In this document: positions 17,505 to 64,000 of the stretch, in pieces
How positions within the stretch are numbered: position 1 is the first letter of the stretch
Layout: each line of letters begins with the position of its first letter
Source of the DNA: an uncultured Gammaproteobacteria bacterium
GTDB lineage: Bacteria; Patescibacteriota; Microgenomatia; Levybacterales; UBA12049
DNA: 64,000 nt
Reading direction: 5' to 3'
Assembly (NCBI GenBank): GCA_964457465.1
Contig: CAYWEJ010000001.1
Coordinates: forward strand, 17,991-81,990
Made by a program: the position numbers and the translations under genes
Notes under the pieces: generated by a model
Seen by the model: only the letters and a program-made list of their open reading frames with translations
Told to the model about the DNA's origin: nothing
The model's database searches: none

Positions 17505-19514
17505 ATGGATCATTTTTCATTTTTAAGTATTTATTTCCCAATTTATTTAATTATTTTTTGTTTTTCAATCTTCTTTTCTTTTTATTTACCAGGAGAGCTT
17601 TTTTTCAGACATAAAAAAATAGACCCTTGCACTAGAGTACTTCTTTCTATAGTTATTGGTATAGTTCTGTGGGGTTTTCAGGGATATATTTTTGGCTATC
17701 TTCATATTCGTTTTTTAACATATGTCTATATTGCGATCATTGTTTATGTATCATTAAGGAAAAAAATAATTACATCCGAGAGATATAAAGAGATCTATAG
17801 TTTGCTTAAAAAGAACAAGCTAGGAGTTTTGTTCGTTGGTATTTGTATAATGCTACAGCTGGTTCCAATTTTTAGCTCAGGAATGCTATATGATGATGGA
17901 GTTAGATTTGTTGGCGTTAACTCAACTGATGGGGTTATGCATTTAGCTTTTATACAAAGTATGACGCATTATTTTCCACCTGTTGAGCCTGGATCGTTTT
18001 CAAACCCACTCACAAATTATCACTACTGGTCAGATTTAATTATGTCTGAAATAGCAAGGATATGGAGAATACCAGTATCCAGTATTTTCTTTCAGTTTTT
18101 CCCTTTAGTTTTATCAGCTCTTACGTCAATAGCGGCCTATCAGCTCGTTCGTAAGCTCGGATTTTCCTCGAAAGCAGGTTATGCTTCGGTTTTTTTACTT
18201 TTCTTTGGAGGAGATTTAACCTATCTTTTGATGTTTTTTGTTAGGCATACTGTATCTTTTTCAACGCCTGGTATTGATAACGGAGTGACTCAGTTCCTAA
18301 ATATGCCTAATGCATTCGCCAGGCCTATTTTCATAACTGGGGTAATAACACTTTTGTTTTGGCTTAAAGAAAAAAGTCCAAAGTGGGGAATAGCAACTAT
18401 TTTAATTTTCGCAAGTCTTTTTGGAGTTAAAATATACTACGGAATTTTTGTCTTCATCGGTATGACTTTTATTTTACTTTATAAAGCTATTCAAATAGTA
18501 GCGAATAAAAAAATAAATATACAAAAAATATTTTGGGAATTGTATCACGATAATTTTTTTATACTATATTTCCTCTTTATCTTTATTTCTTTTTTAATAT
18601 ATTTTCCTCCCAACAAAATGTCAGGAGGCCTTGGATGGTACCCTCTAGAGTGGCCTAAAATTTTTTTGGGAGCAGACGTACTTAATTGGGGAGATTGGTG
18701 GAATAGACATCTCGTCTATGAACAGGCACATAATATTAAAGGAATAATATTTCTCGATAGTATAGCTATTTTGATAGCGTTGCTATCGATCCATGGGACA
18801 AGACTTTTAGGAATTTTTTCATCTATTAGTATTAAAAGAAAAAGTGGTTTTGCAATGTTTTTATTCATTGTTCCTGGGATACTTATTTTTCATATTCTTG
18901 GTCTATTCACACTGCAATCATCTGGTGGGTTAAATGTCTTTAATTTTTTTGTAGTAAGCACAGTATTATTAAGTATTATGCTTGGTGTGATGGTGGATAC
19001 TTTCCCGATCAAAAGCAAAATAGTTAAAGTACTTTTTTTTATTCTTGTTGTAGGACTTACTGTTCCAAGGGCGATATCAGAGTTGGTTGGATATTCAGAT
19101 TCATCTGTCAACCCAAAAAAATATCATTTAATCTCAAATGACGAGGTACAAGCTTTTGAATATATTAAGAAAAATACTCATATTGGCGACATCGTGCAGT
19201 CGCATCCTGCAAATCCAGTCGAGGCTGATACTCCCTATGTGTCTTTTTTTACTGATAGACCGTCTTATTTGTCAGGTGTAAGGTTGCAAATAACGCATAA
19301 TCAACCAATTGAGAAGAGGAGTGAGATGCTTCAGTCACTTTTTTCATCAACTGATTCCCCAACTTTTTTTGCGAAGTCGAATGAGTTGGATATAAAAATA
19401 TTCTATCTACAGAAAAAAGCTGAGCAAAGGTTAAAATTCAACCCAGACAAAAATTTAATTATTCCAATTTTTGAAAATAATTCTACTTTAGTATATAAAA
19501 TTTCTGACAATTAG
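17505..19514 (+). CDS. polytopic membrane protein (GT-C-like candidate) with a C-terminal extracytoplasmic domain
   Basis: 669 aa. Contains 'LYDDGVRFVGVNSTDGVMHLAFIQSM', many TM helices and a roughly 150-aa C-terminal soluble region. Confidence 0.4.
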   Translation: MDHFSFLSIYFPIYLIIFCFSIFFSFYLPGELFFRHKKIDPCTRVLLSIVIGIVLWGFQGYIFGYLHIRFLTYVYIAIIVYVSLRKKIITSERYKEIYSLLKKNKLGVLFVGICIMLQLVPIFSSGMLYDDGVRFVGVNSTDGVMHLAFIQSMTHYFPPVEPGSFSNPLTNYHYWSDLIMSEIARIWRIPVSSIFFQFFPLVLSALTSIAAYQLVRKLGFSSKAGYASVFLLFFGGDLTYLLMFFVRHTVSFSTPGIDNGVTQFLNMPNAFARPIFITGVITLLFWLKEKSPKWGIATILIFASLFGVKIYYGIFVFIGMTFILLYKAIQIVANKKINIQKIFWELYHDNFFILYFLFIFISFLIYFPPNKMSGGLGWYPLEWPKIFLGADVLNWGDWWNRHLVYEQAHNIKGIIFLDSIAILIALLSIHGTRLLGIFSSISIKRKSGFAMFLFIVPGILIFHILGLFTLQSSGGLNVFNFFVVSTVLLSIMLGVMVDTFPIKSKIVKVLFFILVVGLTVPRAISELVGYSDSSVNPKKYHLISNDEVQAFEYIKKNTHIGDIVQSHPANPVEADTPYVSFFTDRPSYLSGVRLQITHNQPIEKRSEMLQSLFSSTDSPTFFAKSNELDIKIFYLQKKAEQRLKFNPDKNLIIPIFENNSTLVYKISDN

Positions 19515-61590: not shown

Positions 61591-62091
61591 GTGAAGAACA
61601 AACAATTGCTTATCGTAGGAGTTGTAGTACTCCTTTTAGTCGTAGGAGGAGGATTCTTTTTTGTTCGAAATTCTCATCAAGATGATGAGGTAGAAAATAC
61701 CCAGACTTTTGAAGAAGATGCGATAAGCGTTTCTCCTGAGGAAGTTGGTTTGAAGTTAACAACAAAGAACAACAAAAGAGAGATAAAATTCTCAGTTAGC
61801 GCTTTGAAAGACGTTAAGACCATAGAGTGGGATTTTACCTATGATGCAGATATTCCGCCAGAATACCAAGAGGAGGGTGGCTCGGGCAAGGTGACACAAA
61901 GATTTGGTAGCAGTGAGCCTGTCGATGTTGCTGGTAAGTCATCATATGAGTCACAGTACCGTGAGATTGGCACATGCTCAAGTGGCCGTTGTAGGTTTGA
62001 TACAGGTGTTGAAGAGATACATTTTGTTCTTAAAATGGTGAAGACTGATGGTAAGAACTACCAAGTGGAAGATTCTATCAGCCTCGAATAG
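61591..62091 (+). CDS. hypothetical signal-anchored exported protein
   Basis: In-frame GTG start. The ORF-track TTG start at 61543 lies upstream of the promoter. 'MKNKQLLIVGVVVLLLVVGGGFFFV' is a signal anchor. The C-terminal region has 'CSSGRC'. No recognisable domain. Confidence 0.35.
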   Translation: MKNKQLLIVGVVVLLLVVGGGFFFVRNSHQDDEVENTQTFEEDAISVSPEEVGLKLTTKNNKREIKFSVSALKDVKTIEWDFTYDADIPPEYQEEGGSGKVTQRFGSSEPVDVAGKSSYESQYREIGTCSSGRCRFDTGVEEIHFVLKMVKTDGKNYQVEDSISLE

Positions 62092-62137
62092 TCCTCATTT
62101 TTTCCTTTCCTAATTTATTTTTTCGTATTATTTTGGC

Positions 62138-62143
62138 TTGACA
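62138..62143 (+). promoter_or_regulatory. TTGACA -35-like hexamer of the putative mraZ promoter
   Basis: Exact consensus hexamer about 90 nt upstream of the mraZ ATG. The -10 is not convincingly identified. Confidence 0.3.
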
Positions 62144-62173
62144 AGTCAGTAAAATTCAGTCATGATTACTAAA

Positions 62174-62200
62174 TAGTGATTATTAGTGATTTGTAGTGAA
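62174..62200 (+). promoter_or_regulatory. three direct repeats TAGTGAT / TAGTGAT / TAGTGAA at exactly 10-bp spacing: candidate MraZ operator
   Basis: Read directly: 'aaaTAGTGATtatTAGTGATttgTAGTGAAttc'. It lies 32 nt upstream of the mraZ start codon. MraZ proteins are known to bind phased direct repeats in their own promoter region. Confidence 0.5.
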
Positions 62201-62231
62201 TTCTGTAATCACGTCTGCTCATTTACAAGTT

Positions 62232-62669
62232 ATGCTTTTAGGTCAAGTCGAGTCAAAGCTTAGTCAGCAATTCCAGACGGCATTCCCAAAAAAATTTAGG
62301 GATGAACTCGGAAACAGAATTATTATCACGAAAGGGATAGACAAGTGCTTACTTGCTGTGTCTGAACAAAATTGGGAAACATTATTAGAGGGGACAAGAG
62401 AGATGCCATTTCTTGATAAAGCGACAAGAGAACTGCAAAGATATCTTTTTGGAAGTGCTGATGTAATAAAAATAGACAAACAAGGAAGGTTTTTTATGCC
62501 TGAGTATTTAAGAGTATATGCAAATATGTCACGAGAAATAGTATTTGTTGGAGTTCAAAGATATGTTGAGATTTGGGATTTGAATTTATGGGAAAGTCAT
62601 CAAAAAAGCATAGCAAATAGCATTGAGTTACTCACTATAAATCTGTCCAAAACTAAAGGACATGAATAA
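62232..62669 (+). CDS. mraZ: transcriptional regulator MraZ
   Basis: In-frame ATG. 'MLLGQVES...AFPKKFRDELGNRIIITKGIDKCLL' and a second-half 'IDKQGRFFMPEYLR' (DxxGR motif), 146 aa. Aligns to B. subtilis MraZ. The first DxxGR motif is degenerate. Confidence 0.7.
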   Translation: MLLGQVESKLSQQFQTAFPKKFRDELGNRIIITKGIDKCLLAVSEQNWETLLEGTREMPFLDKATRELQRYLFGSADVIKIDKQGRFFMPEYLRVYANMSREIVFVGVQRYVEIWDLNLWESHQKSIANSIELLTINLSKTKGHE

Positions 62670-63531
62670 TTATCATATATCAGTTCTTTTACAAGAAGTA
62701 CTTCAATACCTGAAAGTAACGAAAGGTGAAGATTATATTGACTGCACCCTGGGTGGAGGAGGTCATACTATTGCAATAGCAAAGCTTGGGGGAAGAGTTT
62801 TATCACTTGATGTAGATCAAGATGCTATAGATCATGTTGAGAAGCTGATTGAGAAGTCGTTGCGCGTTGATATAGTCAGAGAAAATTTTTTACATGCTGT
62901 TGACATTGCACAACAAAAAGGAATAAGCAAAGTAGCGGGAATCTTAATAGATCTTGGTGTCTCCAGCCATCAGTTTGACGAAAAGAACAGGGGATTTAGC
63001 TTTGCGAACGGGCCGCTTGATATGCGGATGGATCAAAGACTGCAAGTTCGGGCAAAAGACTTAGTGAATGGTTTGACAGAAAAAGAATTAAGACATCTTT
63101 TTGAAAAACTGGGAGAAGAGCGATTTGCAAAGAAAATTGCGAAAGTAATAGTCGAGAAAAGGAAAGAGGGCCAAATTGAGACAACAGAAGAGCTTGCAAA
63201 TCTTATCAAGGGATCAGTCTTTCGTTCTGAGCATGATATTCATCCTGCAACTCGAATTTTTCAGGCTTTAAGAATAGCGGTAAATGATGAATTGAATATT
63301 CTTGAAGAGACAATTCCAAAGATGGTATCACTTCTCAAGCCTGGGGGGAGATTGGTTATCATCTCATTCCATTCTTTAGAAGATAGAATCGTTAAAAAAT
63401 CGTTCGAACAACTCGAACAAGAGAATAAAGGAAAAATAGTCACTAAAAAACCAGTTCAAGCATCAGAAGAAGAAGTACTTTTTAATAAAAGAGCGAGAAG
63501 CGCAAAGCTGCGTGTTTTTGAAAAAATATGA
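62662..63531 (+). CDS. rsmH: 16S rRNA (cytosine1402-N4)-methyltransferase
   Basis: 'HISVLLQEVL', 'CTLGGGGH', 'LDVDQDAI' and 'IDLGVSSHQFD' (MraW signature). Confidence 0.85.
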   Translation: MNNYHISVLLQEVLQYLKVTKGEDYIDCTLGGGGHTIAIAKLGGRVLSLDVDQDAIDHVEKLIEKSLRVDIVRENFLHAVDIAQQKGISKVAGILIDLGVSSHQFDEKNRGFSFANGPLDMRMDQRLQVRAKDLVNGLTEKELRHLFEKLGEERFAKKIAKVIVEKRKEGQIETTEELANLIKGSVFRSEHDIHPATRIFQALRIAVNDELNILEETIPKMVSLLKPGGRLVIISFHSLEDRIVKKSFEQLEQENKGKIVTKKPVQASEEEVLFNKRARSAKLRVFEKI

Positions 63532-63809
63532 AAAAACCAGTTATTTTTATAGTTATCAATATTGCGATTATTGTCGGACTTTCAATAGTTCAGGTCGTCG
63601 TTGCAAATGGTATTTCAACATCAGGAATTGAGTTGAGTAAGGTGCAGCAGCAGATTGGTGAATTAAAAAGATCAAATGCTATGCTTCATGAGCAGATACT
63701 GACTGCATCATCGCTAACATCAATTGCATCAATAGCATCAAGTATGGGATTTGAGGAAGAAAAATCACCATTAGTTATATCCTCACCACTTCCTCTCGCA
63801 CGAAGATGA
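63528..63809 (+). CDS. ftsL: FtsL-like cell-division protein (single TM plus short coiled coil)
   Basis: 93 aa. An N-terminal TM helix is followed by a heptad-like region 'LSKVQQQIGELKRSNAMLHEQIL'. Sits between rsmH and the PBP gene. Confidence 0.4.
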   Translation: MKKPVIFIVINIAIIVGLSIVQVVVANGISTSGIELSKVQQQIGELKRSNAMLHEQILTASSLTSIASIASSMGFEEEKSPLVISSPLPLARR

Positions 63810-64000
63810 CATGGCGTTACCAATTTGTACTGCTCTTTTTTACCGGACTTTTTATCCTCATTTCACTGAGGCTCTTTTATTGGCAAGGGTTTAAGTCTAG
63901 CGAACTATCAGCCCTTGGTGAATCTCAGTATGGACAAAATATTAAAATAAATCCTACAAGAGGTGAAATCAAAACTTCAGATGGTTTCGCCTTAGCATCA
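63806..64000 (+). CDS. ftsI: penicillin-binding protein (FtsI/PBP2-like transpeptidase), N-terminal fragment truncated by the window end
   Basis: 'MTWRYQFVLLFFTGLFILISLRL' TM helix followed by 'INPTRGEIKTSDGFALAS' (PBP dimerisation-domain start, R-G-x-I-x-D-x-N-G type). The ATG overlaps the ftsL stop. Confidence 0.5.
   Translation, partial: MTWRYQFVLLFFTGLFILISLRLFYWQGFKSSELSALGESQYGQNIKINPTRGEIKTSDGFALAS

Follow-up and report, generated by a model that had tools for sequence, protein, structure and literature searches.

Few bacterial transcription factors are as widely conserved as MraZ, yet a structure showing how it recognizes DNA dates only from 2026. The E. coli promoter Pmra reportedly carries three TGGGN repeats with 5-nt spacers and is autorepressed, a description attributed to Eraso et al. 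2014, and the R15A substitution is likewise said to abolish the function of E. coli MraZ. In diverse bacteria the MraZ operator usually consists of three, and at times four, GTG(G/T) boxes (4-nt cores) separated by 6-nt spacers, which gives a 10-bp period, and it overlaps or adjoins the core promoter or start site (PMC12957436). In M. genitalium, the mapped transcription start site lies inside box 1, and repression was demonstrated by EMSA and reporter assays (PMC12957436). Cryo-EM of the M. genitalium complex revealed a cradle formed by both DxxxR loops, with one subunit per box, in which the bases of G-T24-G25-T26 are read by Lys13 (T24 and, in box 1, also the G before it), Arg15 (G25) and Arg86 (T/G26); Asp11 and Asp82 position the arginines, and each of the substitutions K13A, R15A and R86A abolishes DNA binding (PMC12957436). 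Repression in B. subtilis depends on three GTGG[A/T]G repeats, and R15A abolishes MraZ function there (bioRxiv 10.1101/2022.02.09.479790). Arg15 has been treated as both invariant and essential.

The window analyzed here, i.e., the whole 64,000-nt stretch of DNA, contains three direct repeats upstream of an mraZ gene of the Levybacterial type. Named homologues and genome records assign the window to Candidatus Levybacteria/Levyibacteriota, within the Patescibacteria. The three repeats belong to a single array. They resemble the operator of M. genitalium (four boxes, AAAGTGT-N3 ... AAAGTGG; 9r4j/9sz7) in their 10-bp period, their place before mraZ, the A-richness of their spacers and a transcription start (predicted in the window) located at box 1, and the residue numbering of the two MraZ proteins is identical. 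The window differs in having three boxes rather than four, a (G)TAG core rather than GTG(T/G), and a MraZ with Gln at positions 13 and 15, where Lys13 and Arg15 make base contacts in M. genitalium. The B. subtilis operator (4-nt spacers) shares with the window three promoter-proximal boxes at a 10-bp period, but the third core base is A here instead of G, and the arginine at position 15 that is essential there is a natural Gln here. The E. coli Pmra is also said to present three direct repeats of 10-bp period at the dcw promoter, but with a G-rich core and a cognate MraZ that reportedly keeps D11, K13 and R15. The kind of element is already known; for the sequence variant, coupled to a natural Arg15-to-Gln replacement, no earlier description was found in the searchable literature, and nothing relevant emerged from the literature on MraZ of Patescibacteria/CPR or on specificity variants at Arg15.

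The repeat array, its predicted promoter and the mraZ operon

Three heptamers, TAGTGAT, TAGTGAT and TAGTGAA, separated by tat and ttg, fill positions 62174-62200 of the window, and their starts (62174, 62184 and 62194) give an exact 10-bp period. Together with the base preceding each heptamer, they make up the predicted MraZ boxes, all on the forward strand: box 1 (aTAGTGAT, 62173-62180, core TAG at 62174-62176), box 2 (tTAGTGAT, 62183-62190, core TAG at 62184-62186) and box 3 (gTAGTGAA, 62193-62200, core GTAG at 62193-62196), the last being the only box that retains the first G. A preliminary description of this DNA had placed three phased TAGTGAW repeats with a 10-bp period 32-58 nt upstream of mraZ and downstream of a perfect TTGACA. 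Reading of the sequence bears out each of these points, with the mraZ ATG at 62232 and the TTGACA at 62138-62143.

The heptamer alone is not over-represented in the 64-kb window (24 copies versus 21.7 expected). The arrangement is significant: outside the array, which has two, the window has no TAGTGA-N4-TAGTGA pair free of mismatches, and the array is the single instance of TAG-N7-TAG-N7-TAG in the two strands of the window together, where 0.36 are expected. The array is also the sole exact 6-mer tripled at period 10 in the window, and any such triple appeared in just 2 of 300 first-order Markov simulations of it. Two further candidate sites were rejected. The best near-match to a second operator (18010-18025, one mismatch) falls within a 669-aa open reading frame and was taken as chance, and TAATCAC (62206-62212), an inverted partial copy considered as a fourth box, is not conserved in the related locus L001.

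A dcw-type cluster begins here with mraZ, and the array is located in the 140 nt that separate mraZ from the preceding gene. A consensus scan identified the TTGACA at 62138-62143 (+) as the -35 hexamer of a predicted mraZ (Pmra) promoter; the predicted -10 hexamer CATGAT (62161-62166, +), a consensus match only, follows after a 17-nt spacer, and the two together match the sigma-70 consensus at 10 of 12 positions. When the closest relatives are aligned, TTGACA(A) shows no variation, and CATTAT or CAAAAT occupies the -10 position; TTGACA(A) also served as the anchor in 128 Levy-like loci. Promoter geometry would place the transcription start at 62172-62174 (+), 6-8 nt past the -10 and at the edge of box 1. 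Box 1 begins about 7 nt past the predicted -10, and its spacing to the -35 is conserved in relatives; the boxes would span roughly +1 to +28 of the transcript, within a predicted 5' untranslated leader at 62173-62231 (+). The last 15-18 nt of the leader, directly ahead of the mraZ ATG (window 62214-62231; GCTCATTTACAAGTT), recur in the closest relatives as a conserved stretch (…CATT.ACAAGCTATG) and contain no recognizable Shine-Dalgarno sequence; this part of the leader may represent an unusual translation-initiation context.

The mraZ gene (62232-62669, +) encodes a protein of 145 aa that matches Pfam PF02381 (E = 3.6e-23; 81.8 bits, cut-off 23) over two stretches corresponding to two tandem SpoVT/AbrB-like MraZ domains. 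Its score with the NCBIfam equivalog model TIGR00242 (98.1 bits) lies slightly below the cut-off of 98.35, which implies that some pipelines may leave Levybacterial MraZ unnamed because of the divergent first motif. The ATG at 62232 is the true start, since all homologues begin with MLxGQ; the in-frame upstream GTG at 62196 given by the open reading frame lister was ruled out on the same ground. The AlphaFold2 (AF2) model of the protein (pLDDT 86) has a TM score of 0.80 to 9qlg and of 0.77-0.80 to those DNA-bound chains of 9r4j/9sz7 that match it best. Second in the operon, rsmH (mraW; 62662-63531, +; PF01795, E = 5.9e-96; TIGR00006, 318 bits), overlaps the end of mraZ and is followed by a gene for an ftsL-like membrane protein of 93 aa (63528-63809, +) and by the start of a penicillin-binding protein gene (ftsI-like; within 63528-64000, +) that runs off the window. 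Gene calls on a second assembly show PBP_dimer and Transpeptidase domains in the penicillin-binding protein gene. The second assembly carries an identical MraZ and promoter, which are thereby seen on two contigs, although the samples are not necessarily independent. The dcw-type cluster seems to be short: in L161 (4575-6438, past the window end), the penicillin-binding protein gene is followed by a convergent gene with a tRNA_bind domain, so any mur or ftsZ genes would not be contiguous with the mraZ operon. Within the ftsL-like reading frame, CATCAA occurs three times at a 9-bp period (63718-63745) and encodes …SLTSIASIASS…; it is probably just a coding repeat.

Conservation of the array and register of the box

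The 130-160 nt upstream of mraZ were read in 160 related loci, 80 from species-representative genomes and 80 from metagenomes. The initial proposal of an MraZ operator had named lack of conservation upstream of mraZ in relatives as the finding that would speak against it. Nearly all 160 loci, in Levybacteria and beyond, carry two to four direct repeats, usually three, which follow the -10, precede mraZ and are spaced with a 10-bp period. Among 131 Levy-like loci, the exactly phased chain comprises three boxes in 89, four in 29 and two in 12. The first core lies 36-39 nt past the TTGAC start in most of them (36 nt in the window), and at 28 nt in those loci that have an extra weak AATAG box overlapping the -10; this conserved spacing puts box 1 at the predicted transcription start. 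The three boxes of the window are the same over six bases and exactly phased, which makes them the best-preserved array among close relatives. One Gln15 locus, L091 (metagenome contig Ga0113563_10248781), lacks a cleanly phased array and has irregularly spaced TAG motifs (GGTAGGTAATAGTAAAATCTTTAATTAGTATAG); either its operator has degenerated or its promoter is arranged differently.

In the closest relatives (L002-L005, L008 and L047), the box is AGTAGTGA; AAAGTAGGA or AAAGTAGTC is found in most other Levybacteria, and AAAGTGGGA or AAAGTGGTC in those Levy-like relatives that have Arg15. Firmicutes often carry AGTGGTGA (as in L059, L075 and L080; TGTGGTGA in L078), one base off the AGTAGTGA of the window subclade. 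In general form, Gln15 relatives have AAAGTAG(G/T)(A/C) and Arg15 relatives AAAGTGG(G)(A), and a single column sets the position matrices of the two classes apart, the flanks being alike. This correspondence implies that the (N)TAG of the window is the equivalent of the canonical GTGG and that TGA is a 3' extension, found in this subclade as in the Firmicute box GTGGTGA. The preliminary description had likened an AGTG core to the AAAGTG of low-GC bacteria, a register that is three bases off. GTG is missing from most Levybacterial boxes (AGTAGGA, AGTAGTC); what they all share is GTAG, flanked like the GTGG of the Arg15 relatives, and the equivalent core is (G)TAG. Instead of the canonical GTG(G/T), the window boxes have the core (A/T/G)TAG, and A occupies the third position in every one of the 98 Gln15 loci. 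As this deviation is matched by the Arg15-to-Gln replacement in the cognate MraZ, the array was classed as a variant rather than a canonical member of the family.

MraZ residue 15 and the third base of the box

The window MraZ aligns without gaps over residues 1 to about 120 with the M. genitalium and M. pneumoniae MraZ proteins (PDB), so that residue numbers coincide with those of M. genitalium (S11, Q13, Q15, D82 and R86). MraZ proteins are characterized by two DxxxR motifs with K13, R15 and R86; here, the first motif reads S11-Q13-Q15. Codons 11-15 (62262-62276, +) encode S-Q-Q-F-Q in place of the canonical D-x-K-x-R, with Q13 at 62268-62270 and Q15 at 62274-62276, and codons 82-86 (62475-62489, +) encode an intact second motif, D-K-Q-G-R (D82, R86). 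This agrees with the earlier observation that the first motif, SQQFQ, is degenerate and the second, DKQGR, intact.

Gln15 is present in all 116 scorable top homologues of the window MraZ. Phased TAG pairs accompany Gln15 in 51 of 51 genome loci and TGG pairs accompany Arg15 in 25 of 25 informative ones (Fisher 1.3e-20, uncorrected for phylogeny); the metagenome set has 47 Gln15 loci with TAG and 26 Arg15 loci with TGG. For the 149 informative loci combined, counted again without correction for phylogeny, Gln15 goes with TAG in 98 of 98 and Arg15 with TGG in 51 of 51. When loci were classed by DNA alone (98 A-class and 51 G-class, representing 142 distinct proteins), position 15 was the sole perfect predictor among the 145 columns of MraZ (MI/H = 1.00; next best, 0.74-0.84). 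Residue 11 was rejected as the covarying position: G11 and S11 both occur in both classes, and L053 combines S11 and R15 with GTGG boxes, which shows that residue 15, not 11, tracks the base. Because a box base covaries with an MraZ residue that contacts DNA, the repeats are linked to MraZ and not to another factor.

Arginine-guanine and glutamine-adenine are classical bidentate major-groove pairings, and the co-occurrence of Gln15 with a third-position A fits them, suggesting an atomic Gln15-adenine contact. Arg86 is retained, and the fourth position of the box is still G. The preliminary description had suggested that the degenerate first motif bears on binding stoichiometry. Sequence specificity is the more likely consequence, because in the cryo-EM complex each box is read by one cradle, to which the two motifs of a subunit contribute jointly (PMC12957436), and the changes in the first motif are more likely to reflect an Arg15-to-Gln replacement matching the G-to-A change in the box than decay. 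Levybacteria-like loci with Arg15 (L048, L050, L088, L125 and L142) share the promoter layout and the flanks AAAGTxG(G/T)(A/C), and their MraZ proteins are 44-60% identical; they differ in combining R15 with TGG boxes and thus represent the natural 'other allele' of the switch.

Residue 15 appears to have changed more than once. Gln15 loci were monophyletic in none of 100 RsmH neighbor-joining bootstrap trees, and the four Levy-like Arg15 genome loci were grouped in none of 100. RsmH trees required at least 7 Arg/Gln changes; for an MraZ tree in which residues 9-17 had been masked, the minimum was 3 (2 in the lowest bootstrap), and for a concatenated tree it was 5 (4 in the lowest bootstrap). 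Since all of these are single-gene or two-gene neighbor-joining trees, whose noise inflates parsimony counts, the estimate is of at least two and probably three to five independent switches, each with the matching base change.

A second protein-DNA pair may have changed in the window itself. Among the 120 top homologues, the window MraZ is the only one with Gln13 in place of Lys13. None of the 72 operators of Lys13 proteins (out of 73 distinct Gln15 operators with at least three boxes) lacks the G before TAG in more than one of three boxes, and 62 of them have it in all three, whereas the window operator keeps it in one of three, having lost it at 62173 and 62183, and is the sole such case among the 73. 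The K13Q replacement and the loss of the first G look like a second compensating pair, seen in one genome only. Taken as a whole, the comparison favors, though with a good deal of room for doubt, the view that Levybacterial MraZ re-specified its operator by a one-residue/one-base switch (Arg15/G to Gln15/A) that flipped repeatedly, with K13Q and first-G loss as a second step in the window.

Predicted mode of action, alternative explanations and other promoter motifs

On sequence grounds, the array is very probably the MraZ operator of the mraZ-rsmH-ftsL-ftsI operon, with a variant (G)TAG-TGA box and an autorepressing function. The three boxes would lie on one face of the helix from the predicted transcription start onwards, straight after the -10, and an MraZ oligomer would dock on them cooperatively, one subunit per box. 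The docked protein would hinder RNA polymerase at open-complex formation or promoter escape, so that MraZ would repress its own operon, and the Levybacterial Arg15-to-Gln replacement would be paired in this complex with the G-to-A change at the third base of the box.

The position of the boxes is what suggests repression as the direction of control. MraZ might instead bind them and activate, or merely fine-tune, transcription, e.g., by recruiting or stabilizing RNA polymerase; overexpression of M. gallisepticum MraZ is cited in PMC12957436 as having been reported to activate. This is unlikely for the present locus, as boxes about 7 nt past the -10, at about +1 to +28, occupy a position typical of repression by occlusion, and an identical layout brings about repression in both M. 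genitalium and B. subtilis. It is more improbable still that the array is a relic, left functionless in this genome by a MraZ that no longer binds. The window MraZ lacks both Lys13 and Arg15, the residues whose replacement by alanine abolishes binding in M. genitalium, and its affinity could thus be low; the uniqueness of Gln13 among the 120 homologues and the absence of the first G from two boxes point the same way. Nevertheless, the six-base identity and exact phasing of the three boxes would be unexpected under neutral decay, the remainder of MraZ is conserved with a confident predicted fold, and the joint loss of the first G and Lys13 has the look of compensation, not of degeneration. The occurrence of the same protein and promoter on two contigs also speaks against a relic, with the reservation that the samples are not necessarily independent.

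Phased direct repeats near promoters are typically used by winged-helix response regulators, and a different regulator of 10-11-bp phased repeats, such as one of the OmpR/PhoB type, might be envisaged without any involvement of MraZ. That explanation is very improbable, given that the box base covaries perfectly with MraZ residue 15 alone over 149 loci and several independent switches, that the array is always attached to mraZ, and that the window holds no second TAG-N7-TAG-N7-TAG. Least credible of all is an origin by chance or replication slippage, or a role as a post-transcriptional element of the RNA leader. The lack of enrichment of the heptamer in the window and the location of the boxes within the predicted 5' leader would be compatible with such an origin or role, but the arrangement is significant and deeply conserved, the leader has no Rfam match at E up to 1, its folding does not stand out against shuffled sequence (z = 0.19), and TAATCAC, the inverted partner, is not conserved in L001. 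Conservation of the array effectively refutes this explanation.

As an MraZ operator, the array would be the expected autoregulatory site of a dcw operon, apart from the switch. A whole candidate-phylum lineage with natural Gln15 and a G-to-A change, next to close relatives in the Arg/G state, offers an independent evolutionary check of the Arg15 contact and a specificity rule that experiments can address directly. Levybacterial TAG sites will escape any operator search that relies on GTGG. If the one-residue/one-base switch holds, MraZ and its box would constitute a simple, readable beta-sheet recognition code, testable by swaps and usable for orthogonal repressor-operator pairs.

Other motifs were observed in the mraZ promoters of relatives. 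A sharply positioned (G)ACAC(AC)TA(C/G) occurs upstream of the -35 in, e.g., L010, L012, L021, L024, L025 and L027; 'CACTA' starts 22-23 nt 5' of TTGAC in 77 of 128 Levy-like promoters and recurs at -54/-55 in 30. The motif is absent from window positions 62040-62137 and from L001. It is also visible by eye in the Arg15 loci L048 and L050 (the count of 77 of 128 pools the residue-15 classes), which suggests no apparent covariation with MraZ, and it may belong to another factor; its GACAC resembles the WhiA motif. GTGAAA or its complement TTTCAC lies 9-10 nt past the TTGAC start in about 34 of 128 loci (e.g., L002, L006, L022 and L081) and recurs upstream of the -35 in many, but neither is present in the window spacer (62144-62160). 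In L048, L050, L081 and L082, both orientations combine into a palindrome, TGTGAAA-N4-TTTCACA, that extends across the spacer and the -10.

Many genome records with a Levybacteria-type mraZ (L002, L005-L010, L014, L024, L026, L038, L040 and others) are titled 'uncultured Gammaproteobacteria bacterium', 'Candidatus Acidiferrales', 'Lysobacterales', 'Methylomirabilota' or the like. These titles conflict with the gene content, and the entries look like mislabelled MAG records.
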